Source: a virus (lineage: Duplodnaviria > Heunggongvirae > Uroviricota > Caudoviricetes). From it: 4,057 nucleotides of DNA. The stretch lies in IMG/VR virus record IMGVR_UViG_2695420701_000014; one strand, 5' to 3'. The notes under the pieces were generated by a model. The model ran no database searches. It was not told the origin of the DNA and was given only the letters and a program-made list of their open reading frames with translations. Shown piece after piece: positions 680 through 4,057 of the stretch (positions are counted from its first letter, which is position 1; each line of letters begins with the position of its first letter). Made by a program: the position numbers and the translations under genes.

Positions 680-1828
680 TTACCCCCTGAAGCCTGGCGG
701 GATCGCACTGTCCGGCAACGAGACGGTGTTAACCTGTCGGAGCAACGTCTCAGGCCGAACACCTTTCGGCGCGAACAGGCCCTGGTATTCATTGGCGATG
801 CTGTGTCGAATCACCTGCTCAGGTGTAAAACCCTGCTGACGGAATTTTTCCAGTTCCCGTATCGCCCCGTTAGCGCCCTGCTCCGTTCGAATCGGTTTTC
901 GCAATGCCTGCCTGAACTGGACCCACTCATGCCAGAGTGTTTCTGGCAACCAGTCGGGCAGATCAACTGACAACGGGTCAAATTTTTTCTGGCGAACAGC
1001 CCCACCGATAACCAGAATTCCCTGCTCGGTGTGCCTTGCGATATCACTGCGCCGCAAGACACATATCCCGGTTTCAACAGCACCGATTTTGAGCAGTGAT
1101 TTCTGTCGCGGAGAATTTCGGTCAAGCTCGCTCCCACACCGGACACCGTTCCTGTCAGTCACGACGATATCAATCCGCCCTCCGCAACCGTCACCACGCT
1201 CTGGCACCGGATACTCACGACAGACATCCAGGCCAGCAGCCTGCAACGCAACCACCGCAGAATTACAAAATTCCGCTGCAGTACCGCCAGATAATCTCCC
1301 CTCAAGCACTCCAGCCACAAAATCCCGAAACTCCCTTCCGGAAGGGAAGGGTTTGGGATGGGTTAGATCTGTTTTTAGATCTTTATCTGTATCTTTATTA
1401 GTTGCCTTTGTGTTGGCATCATGTTCGAACATCACTCCAACATCTGTTTGAACACCTGTTAAATTTCTCTCTTGTTTTGTTTGAACATCTGCTTCCTTTC
1501 TGCTTCTTCTGGCCTGAACAGATGCTTTTCCTGCGGCTGATTTTTTGGTTAATTTTTCTCTGACAGATGCCAGATCTTCCTCAATCCGAAGATGCATCCA
1601 TTCGTCGCCGTTATCACAAAAAAACTCCCGCAAGGATGGTTCAACATCAACCCATCGCTCGTTAGTCAGACGGGCAATTTTTGCCAACCTGTTTTTGGGT
1701 ATTGGCTTTCCTGTTTGCCAGTAATTGAACATCAGCAACAAATACGCGCCGTGCTCCTCTGCTGACAAATGCATGGTGTCAGCCAGGTAATCAGCTATGT
1801 ACAGTTGCATGTATGGTAATGCGGCCAT
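680..1828 (-). CDS. Replication initiator, O-like, with DUF1376-type N-terminal domain (YdaU-like); iteron-encoding K/D/T-rich linker; C-terminal domain presumed to recruit the helicase loader
   Basis: ORF-track frame 680..1879 (399 aa). I place the start at ATG 1828-1826 (MAALPYMQLYIADYLADTMHLSAEEHGAYLLLMFNYWQTGKPIP...) because it is preceded by a GGGG SD at 5-nt spacing, whereas ATG 1879 has no SD and adds a hydrophobic 17-aa extension. The N-terminal Y-x-x-D-Y-L-x-D-T...E-x-H-G-A-Y pattern matches DUF1376 replication proteins as recalled. Stop TAA at 682-680 lies 6 nt upstream of the DnaC-like ATG, implying translational coupling. Gene order Cro-like, CII-like, O-like, P-like matches lambdoid replication modules. 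Confidence 0.8.
   Translation of the reverse strand: MAALPYMQLYIADYLADTMHLSAEEHGAYLLLMFNYWQTGKPIPKNRLAKIARLTNERWVDVEPSLREFFCDNGDEWMHLRIEEDLASVREKLTKKSAAGKASVQARRSRKEADVQTKQERNLTGVQTDVGVMFEHDANTKATNKDTDKDLKTDLTHPKPFPSGREFRDFVAGVLEGRLSGGTAAEFCNSAVVALQAAGLDVCREYPVPERGDGCGGRIDIVVTDRNGVRCGSELDRNSPRQKSLLKIGAVETGICVLRRSDIARHTEQGILVIGGAVRQKKFDPLSVDLPDWLPETLWHEWVQFRQALRKPIRTEQGANGAIRELEKFRQQGFTPEQVIRHSIANEYQGLFAPKGVRPETLLRQVNTVSLPDSAIPPGFRG
1363..1577. other. Putative phage origin of replication embedded in the O-like gene: iteron-like repeats plus AT-rich tract with AGATCT/GATC sites
   Basis: GAACA-centred repeats at 1427, 1450, 1483 and 1516 (spacing 23, 33, 33 bp): ATGTTCGAACAT (12-bp perfect palindrome, 1421-1432), CTGTTTGAACACCTG (1444-1458), TTGTTTGAACATCTG (1479-1493, 13/15 identical to the previous), CCTGAACAGATGC (1513-1525), and a degenerate copy CTGACAGATGC near 1560-1570. 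An adjacent AT-rich tract at 1363-1400 (TTAGATCTGTTTTTAGATCTTTATCTGTATCTTTATTAG) carries two AGATCT hexamers, with a third at 1572-1577. The arrangement parallels the lambda ori inside gene O (established knowledge). Confidence 0.5.
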
Positions 1829-1891
1829 AATTGCCCCGTATGATGCTGCCCGGTTGCTTAGAATAAGCACAAACAGCATGGAAACTTTTGC

Positions 1892-2314
1892 TTAATGAAC
1901 AATGACAGAATCGTCGGAAGACCCGCCGCCGCTGAAATGCGCTTTCCGGTAAACGGCCTGGACTGCATCATCATGCGCATCAATTGCCGTACTCAACGCT
2001 TCCTGCGCCGCCAGTAATGCACGGCGTTCCAGGGTATCGAAGATGCAGAGTCGGTGACGCAGCTCGCGCGGAAGAATTGCCAGAACCGCAGGGATCAGTT
2101 TCTGAATTTTTTCCCTTTGCGCTTTCGTTTCACCTTTCAACCAACGGTGATAGATATTCTGCTGATTGTTCCAGTCCTTGCCTGGTACAAGGGGCAATTC
2201 GCCGCCCCCCTGGCGCAGATATTCTTCAGTAATTGCGTTAGCGACCCACGCCTGCCCTTTTTCGGCTGCCAGGGCTAACAACACTGATTCGATGTGCTCA
2301 TGCCTGATTTTCAT
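1892..2314 (-). CDS. YdaT-like protein (140 aa), proposed functional equivalent of lambda CII in Rac/CP-933P-type prophages
   Basis: 140-aa ORF (MKIRHEHIESVLLALAAEKGQAWVANAITEEYLRQ...). Its start ATG 2314-2312 overlaps the stop TGA 2313-2311 of the upstream Cro-like gene (ATGA overlap). Size and position immediately after the Cro-like gene and before the O/P-like genes match ydaT of Rac-type prophages. The assignment is by context and recollection, not a search. Confidence 0.7.
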   Translation of the reverse strand: MKIRHEHIESVLLALAAEKGQAWVANAITEEYLRQGGGELPLVPGKDWNNQQNIYHRWLKGETKAQREKIQKLIPAVLAILPRELRHRLCIFDTLERRALLAAQEALSTAIDAHDDAVQAVYRKAHFSGGGSSDDSVIVH

Positions 2315-2553
2315 GAATCAACCGCTCCTATGCTGTTTTCGCTATGCTTACCGTCTGGGGGGAATACATCGTCAAGTCCACAATGAGCGCCAAGCCGATT
2401 AAGGGTAGAAACAATTTTTCTGCACTCCTCTAGTCCAGGGGTACGAAAATTTGCTTCGTAATTTGCCAGTCGGCTTTGTATCCACCCTAACTGAACAGCA
2501 AGTTGTCTTTGAGACAGCCCAAGCTGTTTTCGATATGTTGAAATTTTGTTCAT
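2311..2553 (-). CDS. Cro-like HTH (XRE family) transcriptional regulator, 80 aa (YdaS-like position)
   Basis: ATG at 2553-2551 preceded by GGAGG with 6-nt spacing. The product MNKISTYRKQLGLSQRQLAVQLGWIQSRLANYEANFRTP... has a clear HTH (LGLSQRQLA...GWIQSRLANYE). It is divergent from the repressor gene across a 96-bp operator-bearing spacer. Confidence 0.8.
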   Translation of the reverse strand: MNKISTYRKQLGLSQRQLAVQLGWIQSRLANYEANFRTPGLEECRKIVSTLNRLGAHCGLDDVFPPDGKHSENSIGAVDS

Positions 2554-2577: not shown

Positions 2578-2638
2578 AACACACCTTGTGTTATATAGCC
2601 AAGCCGTTTTGTGTTTTATGTAAATCACGATTCGTGAT
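2578..2638. promoter_or_regulatory. OR-like operator cluster: three 15-bp dyad sites at 23-bp centre spacing between the divergent Cro-like and repressor genes
   Basis: AACACA-cct-TGTGTT (2578-2592, perfect 6-3-6 dyad); AAGCCG-ttt-TGTGTT (2601-2615, right half-site only); ATCACGA-t-TCGTGAT (2624-2638, perfect dyad). Shared core CACr-N3-yGTG; centres at 2585, 2608 and 2631. The divergent promoters themselves could not be assigned confidently. Confidence 0.55.
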
Positions 2639-2649
2639 ACAAGGATGCA

Positions 2650-3069
2650 ATGGAAAAAGAAAACGAAAAAATTGCCGCTAGTAGGCTCAATGACAAAATT
2701 GCAATGCGTCTTAAAGAGCGCAGGCAGAAGCTTGGTTTATCTCAAGGAAAACTTGCTGAAATCTGCGGATGGACGCAATCGCGTATAGGTAACTATGAGG
2801 CGGGCAGCAGAAATGTTGGAGTACATGACGCTGTCGTATTGGGAAAGGCACTTGGCATATCTCCTCCTGAGCTCCTCTTTGGAGAACAGGAATCTTCTGA
2901 ATTGTGGTTAAATGAATCCCAACGAAAACTTCTTGAGTTGTTTAACCAGCTACCGGGCTCAGAACAACAACGAATGATTGAGCTATTTGAAGTCCGGCTA
3001 AAAGAAATCGATGAGTATGTAGAAAAATATTTGAGAGGCAGGATTAAAGATAATCCCCCACCGGAATAA
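2650..3069 (+). CDS. Prophage repressor, CI-functional/RacR-like, XRE-family HTH, 139 aa, no LexA-like S24 peptidase domain
   Basis: ATG 2650 with AAGGA SD 4 nt upstream. HTH LGLSQGKLAEICGWTQSRIGNYEAG; the recognition-helix region GWTQSRIGNYEA is nearly identical to that of the Cro-like protein (GWIQSRLANYEA). The C-terminal ~60 aa are charged and helical-looking (ELWLNESQRKLLELFNQLPGSEQQRMIELFEVRLKEIDEYVEKYL) and too short for an S24 autoprotease fold. An intrinsic terminator follows. Confidence 0.85.
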   Translation: MEKENEKIAASRLNDKIAMRLKERRQKLGLSQGKLAEICGWTQSRIGNYEAGSRNVGVHDAVVLGKALGISPPELLFGEQESSELWLNESQRKLLELFNQLPGSEQQRMIELFEVRLKEIDEYVEKYLRGRIKDNPPPE

Positions 3070-3099
3070 TGATCTTGCTATCACAGTAATATGCCAATC

Positions 3100-3123
3100 A
3101 GCCCGCTATCAGCGGGCTTTTTT
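3100..3123 (+). terminator. Rho-independent terminator of the repressor transcript
   Basis: AGCCCGCT-atc-AGCGGGCT forms a perfect 8-bp GC-rich stem with a 3-nt loop, followed directly by a T-run (3118-3123), 31 bp after the repressor stop codon. Confidence 0.75.
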
Positions 3124-3152
3124 GTAGCATCATCATATGACACTCACCATAA

Positions 3153-3194
3153 AACACGTTGCGTGTTGACACAAGAAAACAAATTGTGTTTAAT
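3153..3194 (+). promoter_or_regulatory. pL-like early promoter (sigma70 -35 TTGACA, 17-bp spacer, -10 TTTAAT) overlapped by two operator dyads
   Basis: -35 TTGACA at 3166-3171 (consensus) and -10 TTTAAT at 3189-3194 (5/6) with a 17-bp spacer. Operator AACACG-ttg-CGTGTT (3153-3167, perfect dyad) overlaps the -35; AAAACA-aat-TGTGTT (3176-3190, 11/12) overlaps the spacer and -10. Centres at 3160 and 3183, 23 bp apart, the same spacing as the OR-like cluster. Confidence 0.55.
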
Positions 3195-3374
3195 AAGCAT
3201 ATCCAAACAACGCCCCACCAGAGAACGGCAGGACAATACCTCGAGTTATCCAGTCACTGAACAGGGCTAAGTAGCCAGCCTGAGGCATACGAACATGACG
3301 GCAGTTGTTGATTGATACAAAGCGCAGTAGATAAAACGTTCCGCCACCCGGCGTTAAGGGGAAATGGGGTCAAC

Positions 3375-3530
3375 ATGAATACTATCGATCTTGGCAACAA
3401 CGAATCTCTGGTATGTGGCGTGTTTCCCAATCAAGACGGCACATTCACCGCCATGACGTATACCAAAAGCAAAACGTTTAAAACCGAAGCTGGCGCACGT
3501 CGTTGGTTGGGAAGACATTCAGGTGAGTAA
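3375..3530 (+). CDS. Small hypothetical protein, 51 aa; first gene of the putative early-left operon
   Basis: ATG 3375 with GGGG SD 5 nt upstream; product MNTIDLGNNESLVCGVFPNQDGTFTAMTYTKSKTFKTEAGARRWLGRHSGE; stop TAA 3528-3530 lies 1 nt before the next start. The track ORF 3312..3530 begins at a TTG with no SD, so I do not use that start. No family recognised from memory. Confidence 0.5.
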   Translation: MNTIDLGNNESLVCGVFPNQDGTFTAMTYTKSKTFKTEAGARRWLGRHSGE

Positions 3531-3531
3531 A

Positions 3532-3735
3532 ATGAACGAGACAGAATTAAAACACGTTATCGCTCTACTCCTAGAAGATGCAAAACGCCTCCAGCAACTG
3601 GAGCCAAATGCAGGCACTGGGGCACGCATCTGGCTGGCTAAAGAAGCGCTGGAATCTGGCGATTATGATAGCGAAGAAGCCTTCTACAAAGCAGAAGGCC
3701 GTGCAGGATATTCACCGGGTCTTGGCGGGGTATAA
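3532..3735 (+). CDS. Small acidic hypothetical protein, 67 aa, translationally coupled to the upstream 51-aa gene
   Basis: ATG 3532 preceded by AGGTGA SD (3521-3526) at 5-nt spacing; the track start at 3523 is GTG without an SD. Product MNETELKHVIALLLEDAKRLQQLEPNAGTGARIWLAKEALESGDYDSEEAFYKAEGRAGYSPGLGGV. No family recognised. Confidence 0.5.
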   Translation: MNETELKHVIALLLEDAKRLQQLEPNAGTGARIWLAKEALESGDYDSEEAFYKAEGRAGYSPGLGGV

Positions 3736-4002
3736 ATACCATGCGCATTGACTGAATTCGCAAACAAAAACAGACGCGCGATACCTGGATAGTCGGTCTG
3801 CATAGTCAGATATCTGGCTGCGAATTTGATAAATATCACCGCCCTTTTCGGAAACATAAGTTCCGTCCGGGAGTTGATTATACGAACCATCTCCATGGGG
3901 GATCGTTCTCCTGAATCCTAGTGAGAGCATATATTTATGAAGCCCTTCGTAATCCTCTGGCTCAGCATTATATAGTTCTACTCTGGCGAGATACGTTGGC
4001 AT
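3712..4002 (-). CDS. Hypothetical protein, 96 aa, convergent with and overlapping the 3' end of the small-gene pair
   Basis: ATG 4002-4000 preceded by AAGGAA SD with 6-nt spacing (AAGGAAatgaatATGCCA). Product MPTYLARVELYNAEPEDYEGLHKYMLSLGFRRTIPHGDGSYNQLPDGTYVSEKGGDIYQIRSQISDYADRLSRYRASVFVCEFSQCAWYLYPAKTR. The track start at 4041 is TTG and the frame stays open to the window edge, so the N-terminus is not fully certain. Its 3' end overlaps gene 3532..3735 by 24 bp. Confidence 0.6.
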   Translation of the reverse strand: MPTYLARVELYNAEPEDYEGLHKYMLSLGFRRTIPHGDGSYNQLPDGTYVSEKGGDIYQIRSQISDYADRLSRYRASVFVCEFSQCAWYLYPAKTR

Positions 4003-4057
4003 ATTCATTTCCTTACTGGTTGTGTGTGAAGTGGTCAACAAAAACTGGCCACCGAGT

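Follow-up and report, generated by a model that had tools for sequence, protein, structure and literature searches.

The window, by which we mean the whole stretch of 4,057 nucleotides that was analysed, carries the immunity and early region of a lambdoid prophage, as read from its open reading frames and their domains (Table 1). In its right arm, the window shares 96% identity with ydaT/ydaU of the Rac prophage. The gene product assigned as a DicA-type repressor scored 57 bits against the DicA subfamily model of NCBIfam, which is under the cut-off of 101 bits, and a peptidase domain is absent from it. The hairpin that follows the repressor gene coincides with a sub-threshold match to the Rfam family Trp_leader at 3039–3125. 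Downstream of the repressor gene lie the two small genes that are the subject of this work, ORF1 and ORF2, followed by a convergent gene of the YmfI type and by the end of an insertion element. Altogether the window contains 47 open reading frames of at least 30 codons. Since small open reading frames of this kind are common by chance, the reality of ORF1 and ORF2 has to rest on homology and on evidence of selection.

Table 1. Features of the window with their coordinates (position 1 is the first nucleotide of the window).
Feature	Coordinates	Strand	Remarks
DnaC/YdaV-like gene and YdaU-like gene		-	
YdaT-like gene	1892-2314	-	
Cro-like HTH gene	2311-2553	-	
DicA-type HTH repressor gene	2650-3069	+	139 aa; same strand as ORF1 and ORF2; HTH_3, E = 4.6e-13
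Terminator-like hairpin and T-run	3100-3118	+	closes the repressor transcript
Putative operators	3153-3190	.	AACACGTTGCGTGTT at 3153-3167 and AAAACAAATTGTGTT at 3176-3190 (one mismatch), bracketing the -35 element
Predicted early-left (pL/dicBp-like) promoter	3166-3195	+	-35 TTGACA at 3166-3171; 18-nt spacer; extended -10 TGtTTAATA at 3187-3195
5' leader	~3200-3374	+	~175 nt; 85% mean column identity across immunity types and unrelated promoters
ORF1, DUF1391 (YdfA/YdaF family)	3375-3530	+	51 aa; ATG 3375, TAA 3528-3530; predicted beta-beta-beta-alpha fold
Coupling junction AGGTGAGTAAAATG	3521-3534	+	Shine-Dalgarno sequence in ORF1, stop, 1 nt, start of ORF2
ORF2	3532-3735	+	67 aa; ATG 3532, TAA 3733-3735
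ORF2 N-terminal domain	3532-3663	+	residues 1-44; YmfJ-family helical hairpin (~40 aa)
ORF2 variable tail	3664-3735	+	residues 45-67 and stop; predicted disordered; last 24 nt overlap the convergent gene
YmfI-like gene	3712-4002	-	96 aa from ATG 4002 or 98 aa from ATG 4008; 3' end overlaps ORF2 by 24 nt
End of IS911-like (IS3-family) element	4027-4057	.	~25 nt before the start codon of the YmfI-like gene

Predicted early-left promoter, putative operators and leader

A preliminary description of the window had placed the two small genes first behind a pL-like, repressor-controlled promoter. This placement is upheld by the TTGACA/TGtTTAATA pair, with a predicted transcription start near 3202, and by the copies of a palindrome that flank it. 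The palindrome, AACAC-N5-GTGTT, spans 15 bp and occurs a third time at 2578–2592, in the intergenic region between cro and the repressor gene. The three matches in the window compare with 0.07 expected, and three or more were obtained in none of 200 shuffled sequences. The repressor would bind to the two palindromes on either side of the promoter, and we infer with good support that this early promoter is under repressor control. A strict consensus promoter scan did not list the early-left promoter, because its -10 element reads TTAATA. Loci with unrelated immunity regions each have a TTGAC/-10 pair of their own, located at an equal distance from the common leader.

Between the promoter and position 3375 no conserved open reading frame was present; a single mini-ORF of 6 codons occurs at 3296–3316, and no consistent reading frame was found in the leader. 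An N-terminally extended form of ORF1 (72 aa from TTG 3312, with database forms of 77–78 aa) was considered and rejected: the upstream ATG is in frame in some loci only, and in the window it is followed by a stop after 6 codons. We also considered the leader as a structured RNA, either a put/nut-like element or an sRNA. Rfam gave no match, the predicted fold was less stable than those of shuffled sequences (MFE z = +1.3), and the covariation term amounted to about -0.3 to -0.4 on either strand, so this candidate was rejected as well. The C-richness of the leader is modest at most. In Rac, the Rho-dependent terminator trac sits inside racR and not in the leader (PMC4150792).

Families of ORF1 and ORF2

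The ORF1 product matched the Pfam family DUF1391 (PF07151) with an E-value of 5.8e-29 and 99.9 bits (cut-off 27.3), its residues 3–48 aligning to positions 2–47 of the 48 in the model; the corresponding PHROG is phrog_751. It is identical to the RefSeq protein WP_001091979.1 from E. coli O121, annotated as 'DUF1391 family protein'. Of 5426 complete E. coli genomes, 3829 possess a DUF1391 gene, some with as many as 6 copies; the family is restricted to the genera Escherichia, Salmonella and Shigella. In a comparison of 27 distinct DNA versions, pS was 0.292 and pN 0.054 (pN/pS 0.18). The third codon positions were the most variable, indicating purifying selection on the protein. In the AlphaFold model, three short strands are followed by a C-terminal helix (mean pLDDT 78). 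The K-12 genes ydfA, ydfB and ydfC have been described as encoding 'small proteins of unknown function' (PMC5069750).

For ORF2, homologues in other contexts start at the ATG equivalent to 3532 and not at GTG 3523. Neither Pfam nor NCBIfam gave a match to the product. Over its full length it matched phrog_30817, and the YmfJ-family PHROGs recovered with it (phrog_30817, phrog_12693 and phrog_2982) gave E-values from 2.5e-49, for the first of these, to 5e-12; residues 1–44 alone matched three other PHROGs of 43–119 positions. Altogether 124 database proteins were matched. Within the first 44 residues, 34 are identical to YmfJ of the K-12 prophage e14, a protein of 102 aa, and ORF2 contains the conserved motif of the YmfJ N-terminal domain, ELKHVIALLLEDAKRLQQ-EPNAGTEARI, which among homologues forms part of a near-invariant N-terminal segment, ELKHVIALLLEDAKRLQQ(L/I)EPNAGTEARIW(L/I)AK. 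Hosts of YmfJ-like genes comprise Escherichia, Salmonella, Klebsiella, Hafnia, Citrobacter, Enterobacter, Cronobacter, Erwinia, Serratia and Edwardsiella, and one further homologue is encoded by an Aeromonas phage. The C-terminal tails of these proteins are unrelated to each other, and total lengths range from 42 to 154 aa. The C-terminal domain of the YmfJ type (...GVSRVYHDTMVKALRIEL...) is missing from ORF2, which has an unrelated tail of 23 residues instead; ORF2 is therefore an N-domain-only variant rather than an orthologue of complete YmfJ. When 1.84 billion representatives were searched exhaustively with a profile, only 106 clusters were recovered, all of them small proteins. No Pfam domain was found in the longer members of the YmfJ family, nor in YmfJ and YmfI of K-12.

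The ORF2 domain was compared across 52 distinct DNA versions, giving a pS of 0.675 and a pN of 0.136 (pN/pS 0.20); variation at synonymous sites is close to saturation. Not one of the 36 third positions is invariant, and the summed entropy was 45 for third positions against 19 for first and 9 for second positions. This pattern indicates that conservation acts on the protein and not on the nucleotide sequence. In the structural model, helices at residues 3–23 and 27–41 precede a low-confidence tail, with pLDDT below 50 for residues 51–67; searches of the PDB with ORF2 gave no sequence match and no meaningful structural neighbour. In K-12, induction of YmfJ occurs late in the SOS response, and the protein has been detected (PMC11002266); another source lists its function as unknown (PMC5811629). 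The preliminary description had noted that its reading would fall if only the nucleotide sequence were conserved, or if the products turned out to be known, characterised proteins. With pN/pS at about 0.2 in both families the former does not apply, and as to the latter, both families are known and named and have no assigned function (PMC5069750, PMC5811629). Homology and selection, taken together, confirm ORF1 and ORF2 as real genes and as members of known families.

Genomic neighbourhood in related prophages

A close parallel to the arrangement of ORF1 is found in Qin. There, as in the window, a DicA-type repressor gene on the same strand is followed by a repressed promoter, by a DUF1391 gene of 51 codons in first position (ydfA, its product 90% identical to that of ORF1) and, 1 nt past its stop, by a second small open reading frame. 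Qin differs in this second gene, ydfB being unrelated to ORF2, and in the immunity region and most of the leader; homology begins about 45 nt before the ATG. A further difference concerns the dicBF genes of Qin, since the closest intact relatives of the window have a KilR-like gene at +871 and no dicB; Rfam found no match to DicF in the window. Rac shares with the window the long conserved leader, which there precedes ydaG, and a DUF1391 protein, YdaF, with about 88% identity to ORF1. In addition, sieB lies on the opposite strand and runs into the end of the block of small genes, a pair listed as an excludon. However, ydaG comes first in Rac and ydaF second, YdaG is unrelated to ORF2, and the convergent gene is sieB and not ymfI-like. 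The preliminary description had compared the position of the pair to that of ydaG/ydaF in Rac-type prophages. That comparison was correct for ORF1, a homologue of YdaF, but not for ORF2, which corresponds not to YdaG but to the N-terminal domain of YmfJ. The parallel to ORF2 is instead found in e14, which shares with it the N-terminal domain of about 40 aa. In e14, ymfJ lies just downstream of the repressor gene ymfK (cohE) and faces a convergent gene of the YmfI family, with 3' ends overlapping by 63 nt compared to 24 nt in the window. In contrast to the window, e14 has no DUF1391 gene, its repressor is of the LexA-like cleavable type, and its YmfJ possesses the C-terminal domain; the YmfI-like protein of the window is only about 25% identical to YmfI and falls below the NCBIfam cut-off.

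The tight coupling of a 51-codon and a 67-codon gene across a gap of 1 nt, as first described, reads directly from the sequence, and its coordinates are correct: base 3531 is the single spacer between the stop of ORF1 and the start of ORF2. AGGTGA at 3521–3526, which falls within the final codons of ORF1, can pair with the 3' end of 16S rRNA and ends 5 nt before the ATG of ORF2. With this Shine-Dalgarno sequence in the end of ORF1, the 1-nt spacing is predicted to give translational coupling. We then took a census of neighbours in 97 further loci with a YmfJ-like gene, 86 of which are non-identical. A DUF1391 gene was located directly upstream in 25 of the 86, and in all 25 the junction reads GGTGA(G/A)TAAAATG. 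Elsewhere the upstream neighbour was ydfC-like (5 loci), ydfB-like (4) or none or other (52), and in one locus a ydaG-like gene takes this position. Two phages, phiES15 of Cronobacter and pAEv1818 of Aeromonas, have their YmfJ-like gene behind a DicA-like repressor gene, with no DUF1391 gene. Among E. coli genomes, DUF1391 genes are seven times commoner than ORF2-like DNA (3829 versus 512), and the 67-aa form occurs in 19 only. Since Qin shows an identical 1-nt spacing in front of ydfB, which is unrelated to ORF2, we attribute the tight junction to the end of the ydfA cassette. These comparisons point to gene swapping exactly at the downstream start codon, and the evidence speaks against a functional pair: ORF1 and ORF2 appear to be independent accessory cassettes.

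The product of the convergent gene matched phrog_8894 (E = 3.7e-38) and scored 52.8 bits against the NCBIfam model YmfI_phage, under the cut-off of 140 bits. A GhoS/Cas2-like fold was considered for this protein and rejected, with an hhalign probability of 2.75% and no sequence match in the PDB. Downstream of the YmfJ-like gene, a convergent YmfI-like gene was present in 55 of the 82 non-identical loci with enough flanking sequence and absent from 27. The 3' ends of the two genes overlap in 69 of 71 cases, by 4, 22, 24, 30, 42, 54 or 63 nt, and the overlap holds across YmfI subtypes that are just 25–50% identical. Length and type of the YmfJ tail co-vary with the YmfI-like subtype. A reciprocal search starting from one YmfI subfamily recovered a convergent YmfJ domain in 24 of 35 loci, and more distant YmfI relatives lack YmfJ. 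In K-12, ymfI–ymfJ and sieB–ydaF of Rac are both listed as convergent excludons on the basis of RNA-seq (PMC12288877). Judged by these counts, ORF2 is partnered more steadily with the convergent YmfI-like gene than with ORF1, and its tail would for the most part arise incidentally, as the reading frame extends into the 3' end of that gene.

In intact relatives, the operon goes on past the YmfI-like gene to KilR-like and YdaE-like genes, which requires early-left transcription to traverse the YmfI-like gene in antisense orientation. In the window, the final 27–31 bases are the end of an IS911-like element, identical to the end of an annotated IS911 copy in one of the compared loci, and the match to the window ends at 4030 in all related loci. 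With the insertion located upstream of the YmfI-like start codon, the native promoter of this gene has probably been lost in the window.

Alternative readings and proposed function

The preliminary description had suggested that the two proteins might act together, as a two-component early regulator, a host-takeover pair or a toxin–antitoxin-like couple. An obligate regulatory or host-takeover pair that is co-translated for assembly would be in line with the 1-nt spacing and internal Shine-Dalgarno sequence, with the retention of the junction in 25 loci and with the complementary charge of the products (pI 7.9 for ORF1 and 4.67 for ORF2). However, the two families are distributed independently, each gene also occurs alone or with other neighbours, and in Qin the same junction leads into an unrelated gene. 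We consider such a pair very unlikely. Small adjacent prophage genes under one auto-regulated promoter might equally suggest a toxin–antitoxin-like or abortive-infection couple, and the YdaT-like neighbour bears the Pfam label 'toxin'. Nevertheless, Pfam, NCBIfam and PADLOC gave no toxin, antitoxin or defence match for either protein, and with adjacency in 25 of 86 loci the two genes are not co-conserved. Indirect evidence comes from K-12, where a dicBF operon from which dicF and dicB had been deleted, with ydfA, ydfB and ydfC retained, did not inhibit growth on induction (PMC5069750). Such a couple is extremely improbable, and neither joint role is supported by the genome counts and the adjacency found in the census.

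Two further readings concern the genes individually. Either ORF could be a functional analogue of lambda N, an antiterminator for read-through to the kil and recombination genes; it would occupy the first slot of an early-left operon that has a conserved leader, that has to cross a convergent gene and in which no N gene is visible. The proteins themselves argue against this. An arginine-rich motif is absent from both, ORF1 having no Arg before residue 42 and the acidic ORF2 only 2 in its first 40 residues, and no match to the N family was obtained in Pfam. The leader is devoid of stable or covarying hairpins, boxA (CGCTCTT or TGCTCTT) is absent not only from the leader but from the entire window, and both ORFs are dispensable in many related operons. 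The earlier observations that neither protein resembles N and that the leader lacks a boxA-like element are thereby borne out, and there is hardly any likelihood of an N-like role. Alternatively, ORF2 might be a decaying, C-terminally truncated YmfJ pseudogene that is open by chance, leaving ORF1 as the only functional gene. In NZ_CP119441 it is indeed annotated by PGAP over its first 42 codons only, as 'incomplete, missing C-terminus'. The absence of the YmfJ C-terminal domain and the predicted disorder of the tail agree with decay, as do residue 30, which is Gly in ORF2 but Glu in at least 90% of relatives, the differences shown by the nearest 67-aa variant (8 of the 23 tail residues, plus W34), and the existence of alleles with the helix-breaking substitution L14P. 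On the other side, N-domain-only forms of 47–55 aa recur in about 24 of 86 loci, each ending in a 4-nt overlap with the YmfI-like gene, 16 non-identical loci have an intact 67-aa form, and another RefSeq genome carries ORF2 as an ordinary coding sequence for a hypothetical protein. On balance, decay of ORF2 seems unlikely.

We consider it likely that ORF1 and ORF2 are two independent cassettes heading the early-left (pL/dicBp-type) operon of a Rac/Qin-type lambdoid prophage from a Shigella or E. coli host, with the YmfI-like gene as the likely partner of ORF2. Once the DicA-type repressor leaves both operators flanking the promoter, transcription would start near 3202, cross the leader of 175 nt and proceed through ORF1 and ORF2; in intact relatives it would continue antisense to the YmfI-like gene and reach the kil and recombination genes. 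The last codons of ORF1 would supply the Shine-Dalgarno sequence for whichever gene comes next. ORF2 and the YmfI-like gene would form a 3'-overlapping, mutually antisense unit like ymfJ/ymfI of e14, in which transcription at induction and the YmfJ-like product oppose a YmfI-like product expressed in the lysogen. The YmfI-like gene is accordingly proposed as the probable functional partner of ORF2, by way of antisense interference and possibly of protein antagonism. The null explanation is that the linkage of the two genes could reflect physical co-inheritance within one mosaic module. In the window itself the interplay may be defunct, as the insertion element displaces the promoter region of the YmfI-like gene. 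A more speculative and rather doubtful extension is that the YmfJ N-terminal domain and the convergent YmfI-like gene form a two-gene switch that is widespread among lambdoid prophages of enterobacteria. The YmfI-like protein, which might be an exclusion or defence factor in the slot of sieB, would be expressed in the lysogen and then shut off or neutralised at induction by antisense read-through from pL together with the 40-aa hairpin.

Taken together, the locus appears to be a new mosaic combination of known cassettes. We recommend that ORF1 be annotated as a member of the YdfA/YdaF family and ORF2 as a YmfJ-family protein consisting of the N-domain only. At present the annotation of ORF2 is inconsistent: one genome lists a pseudogene, another a hypothetical protein. 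The tight coupling of the two genes is best read as a cassette-junction feature of mosaic prophage evolution and is no evidence of a protein complex. YdfA-like genes are carried by about 70% of complete E. coli genomes, and the recurrent overlapping arrangement of YmfJ-like and YmfI-like genes provides a concrete lead toward a role for these y-genes.

Putative operators and immunity module

Comparison with the cryptic prophage Rac of E. coli K-12 (L006) revealed 96% identity between window positions 1366-2320 and L006 6679-7633, a segment spanning a ydaT-like gene and the start of a ydaU-like replication gene, whereas the cro/repressor cassette displayed no such identity. Judged from these alignments, the window is a Rac-type prophage in which the immunity module has been swapped. 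One copy of the palindrome AACAC-N5-GTGTT is located between cro and the repressor gene and two copies bracket the early-left promoter; together, the three copies probably make up the operators for this immunity type.

Features of the window and of a related locus
Feature	Location	Strand	Remarks
AACAC-N5-GTGTT palindromes, 3 copies	window 2578-2592, 3153-3167, 3176-3190
5' leader, ~175 nt	window 3200-3374	+	between immunity-specific promoter and ORF1
Mini-ORF, 6 codons, ATGACGGCAGTTGTTGATTGA	window 3296-3316	+	inside leader
YmfI-like gene	window 3712-4002	-	convergent with ORF2, 24-nt overlap
End of IS911-like (IS3-family) element	window 4027-4057		~25 nt upstream of YmfI-like start codon
Unannotated ORF, 78% identical to K-12 YdfB	L003 (Cronobacter phage phiES15) ~3361-3483	+

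A conserved leader upstream of ORF1

The leader preceding ORF1, the first gene behind the early-left promoter, is conserved at 85% column identity among prophages whose promoters and operators are unrelated, and its counterpart in K-12 Rac lies upstream of ydaG (L006 5455-5630, minus strand). Neither an Rfam family nor a stable fold, covariation or a consistent reading frame was found that would account for this conservation; the 5' part is mildly C-rich. The mini-ORF shows no conservation as a coding sequence. In many other loci, ydfA shares the reading frame of this ATG, and this accounts for the database entries of 77-78 aa for DUF1391, the family of ORF1.

ORF2, its convergent neighbor and IS elements

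At residue 30 of the YmfJ-family protein ORF2 (window 3619-3621), Gly replaces the Glu present in at least 90% of family members, changing the family motif AGTEARIW to AGTGARIW. This substitution may reflect relaxed constraint in the clade of ORF2. A convergent overlap of 4-63 nt with the YmfJ-like gene occurs in 69 of the 71 related loci having a YmfI-like gene, and ymfJ/ymfI of prophage e14 are arranged in the same way. The YmfI-like protein had no match in Pfam, PDB or PADLOC, and a GhoS-like fold, proposed as a guess, was unsupported when checked.

Similarity to the window is lost after position 4030 in all related loci. Other IS insertions were observed near the same site in related Shigella-type loci. 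An IS interrupts the YmfI-like gene in three loci (L007, L008, L026), and an IS3-family orfA directly follows it in another (L032).

Shuffling of small early ORFs

In phiES15, the YdfB-like ORF is positioned directly upstream of the YmfJ-like gene phiES15_010, an arrangement also found in four further loci (L064, L068, L070, L092). Shuffling of the small early ORFs ydfA, ydfB, ydfC, ydaG and ymfJ-N has given rise to many combinations.
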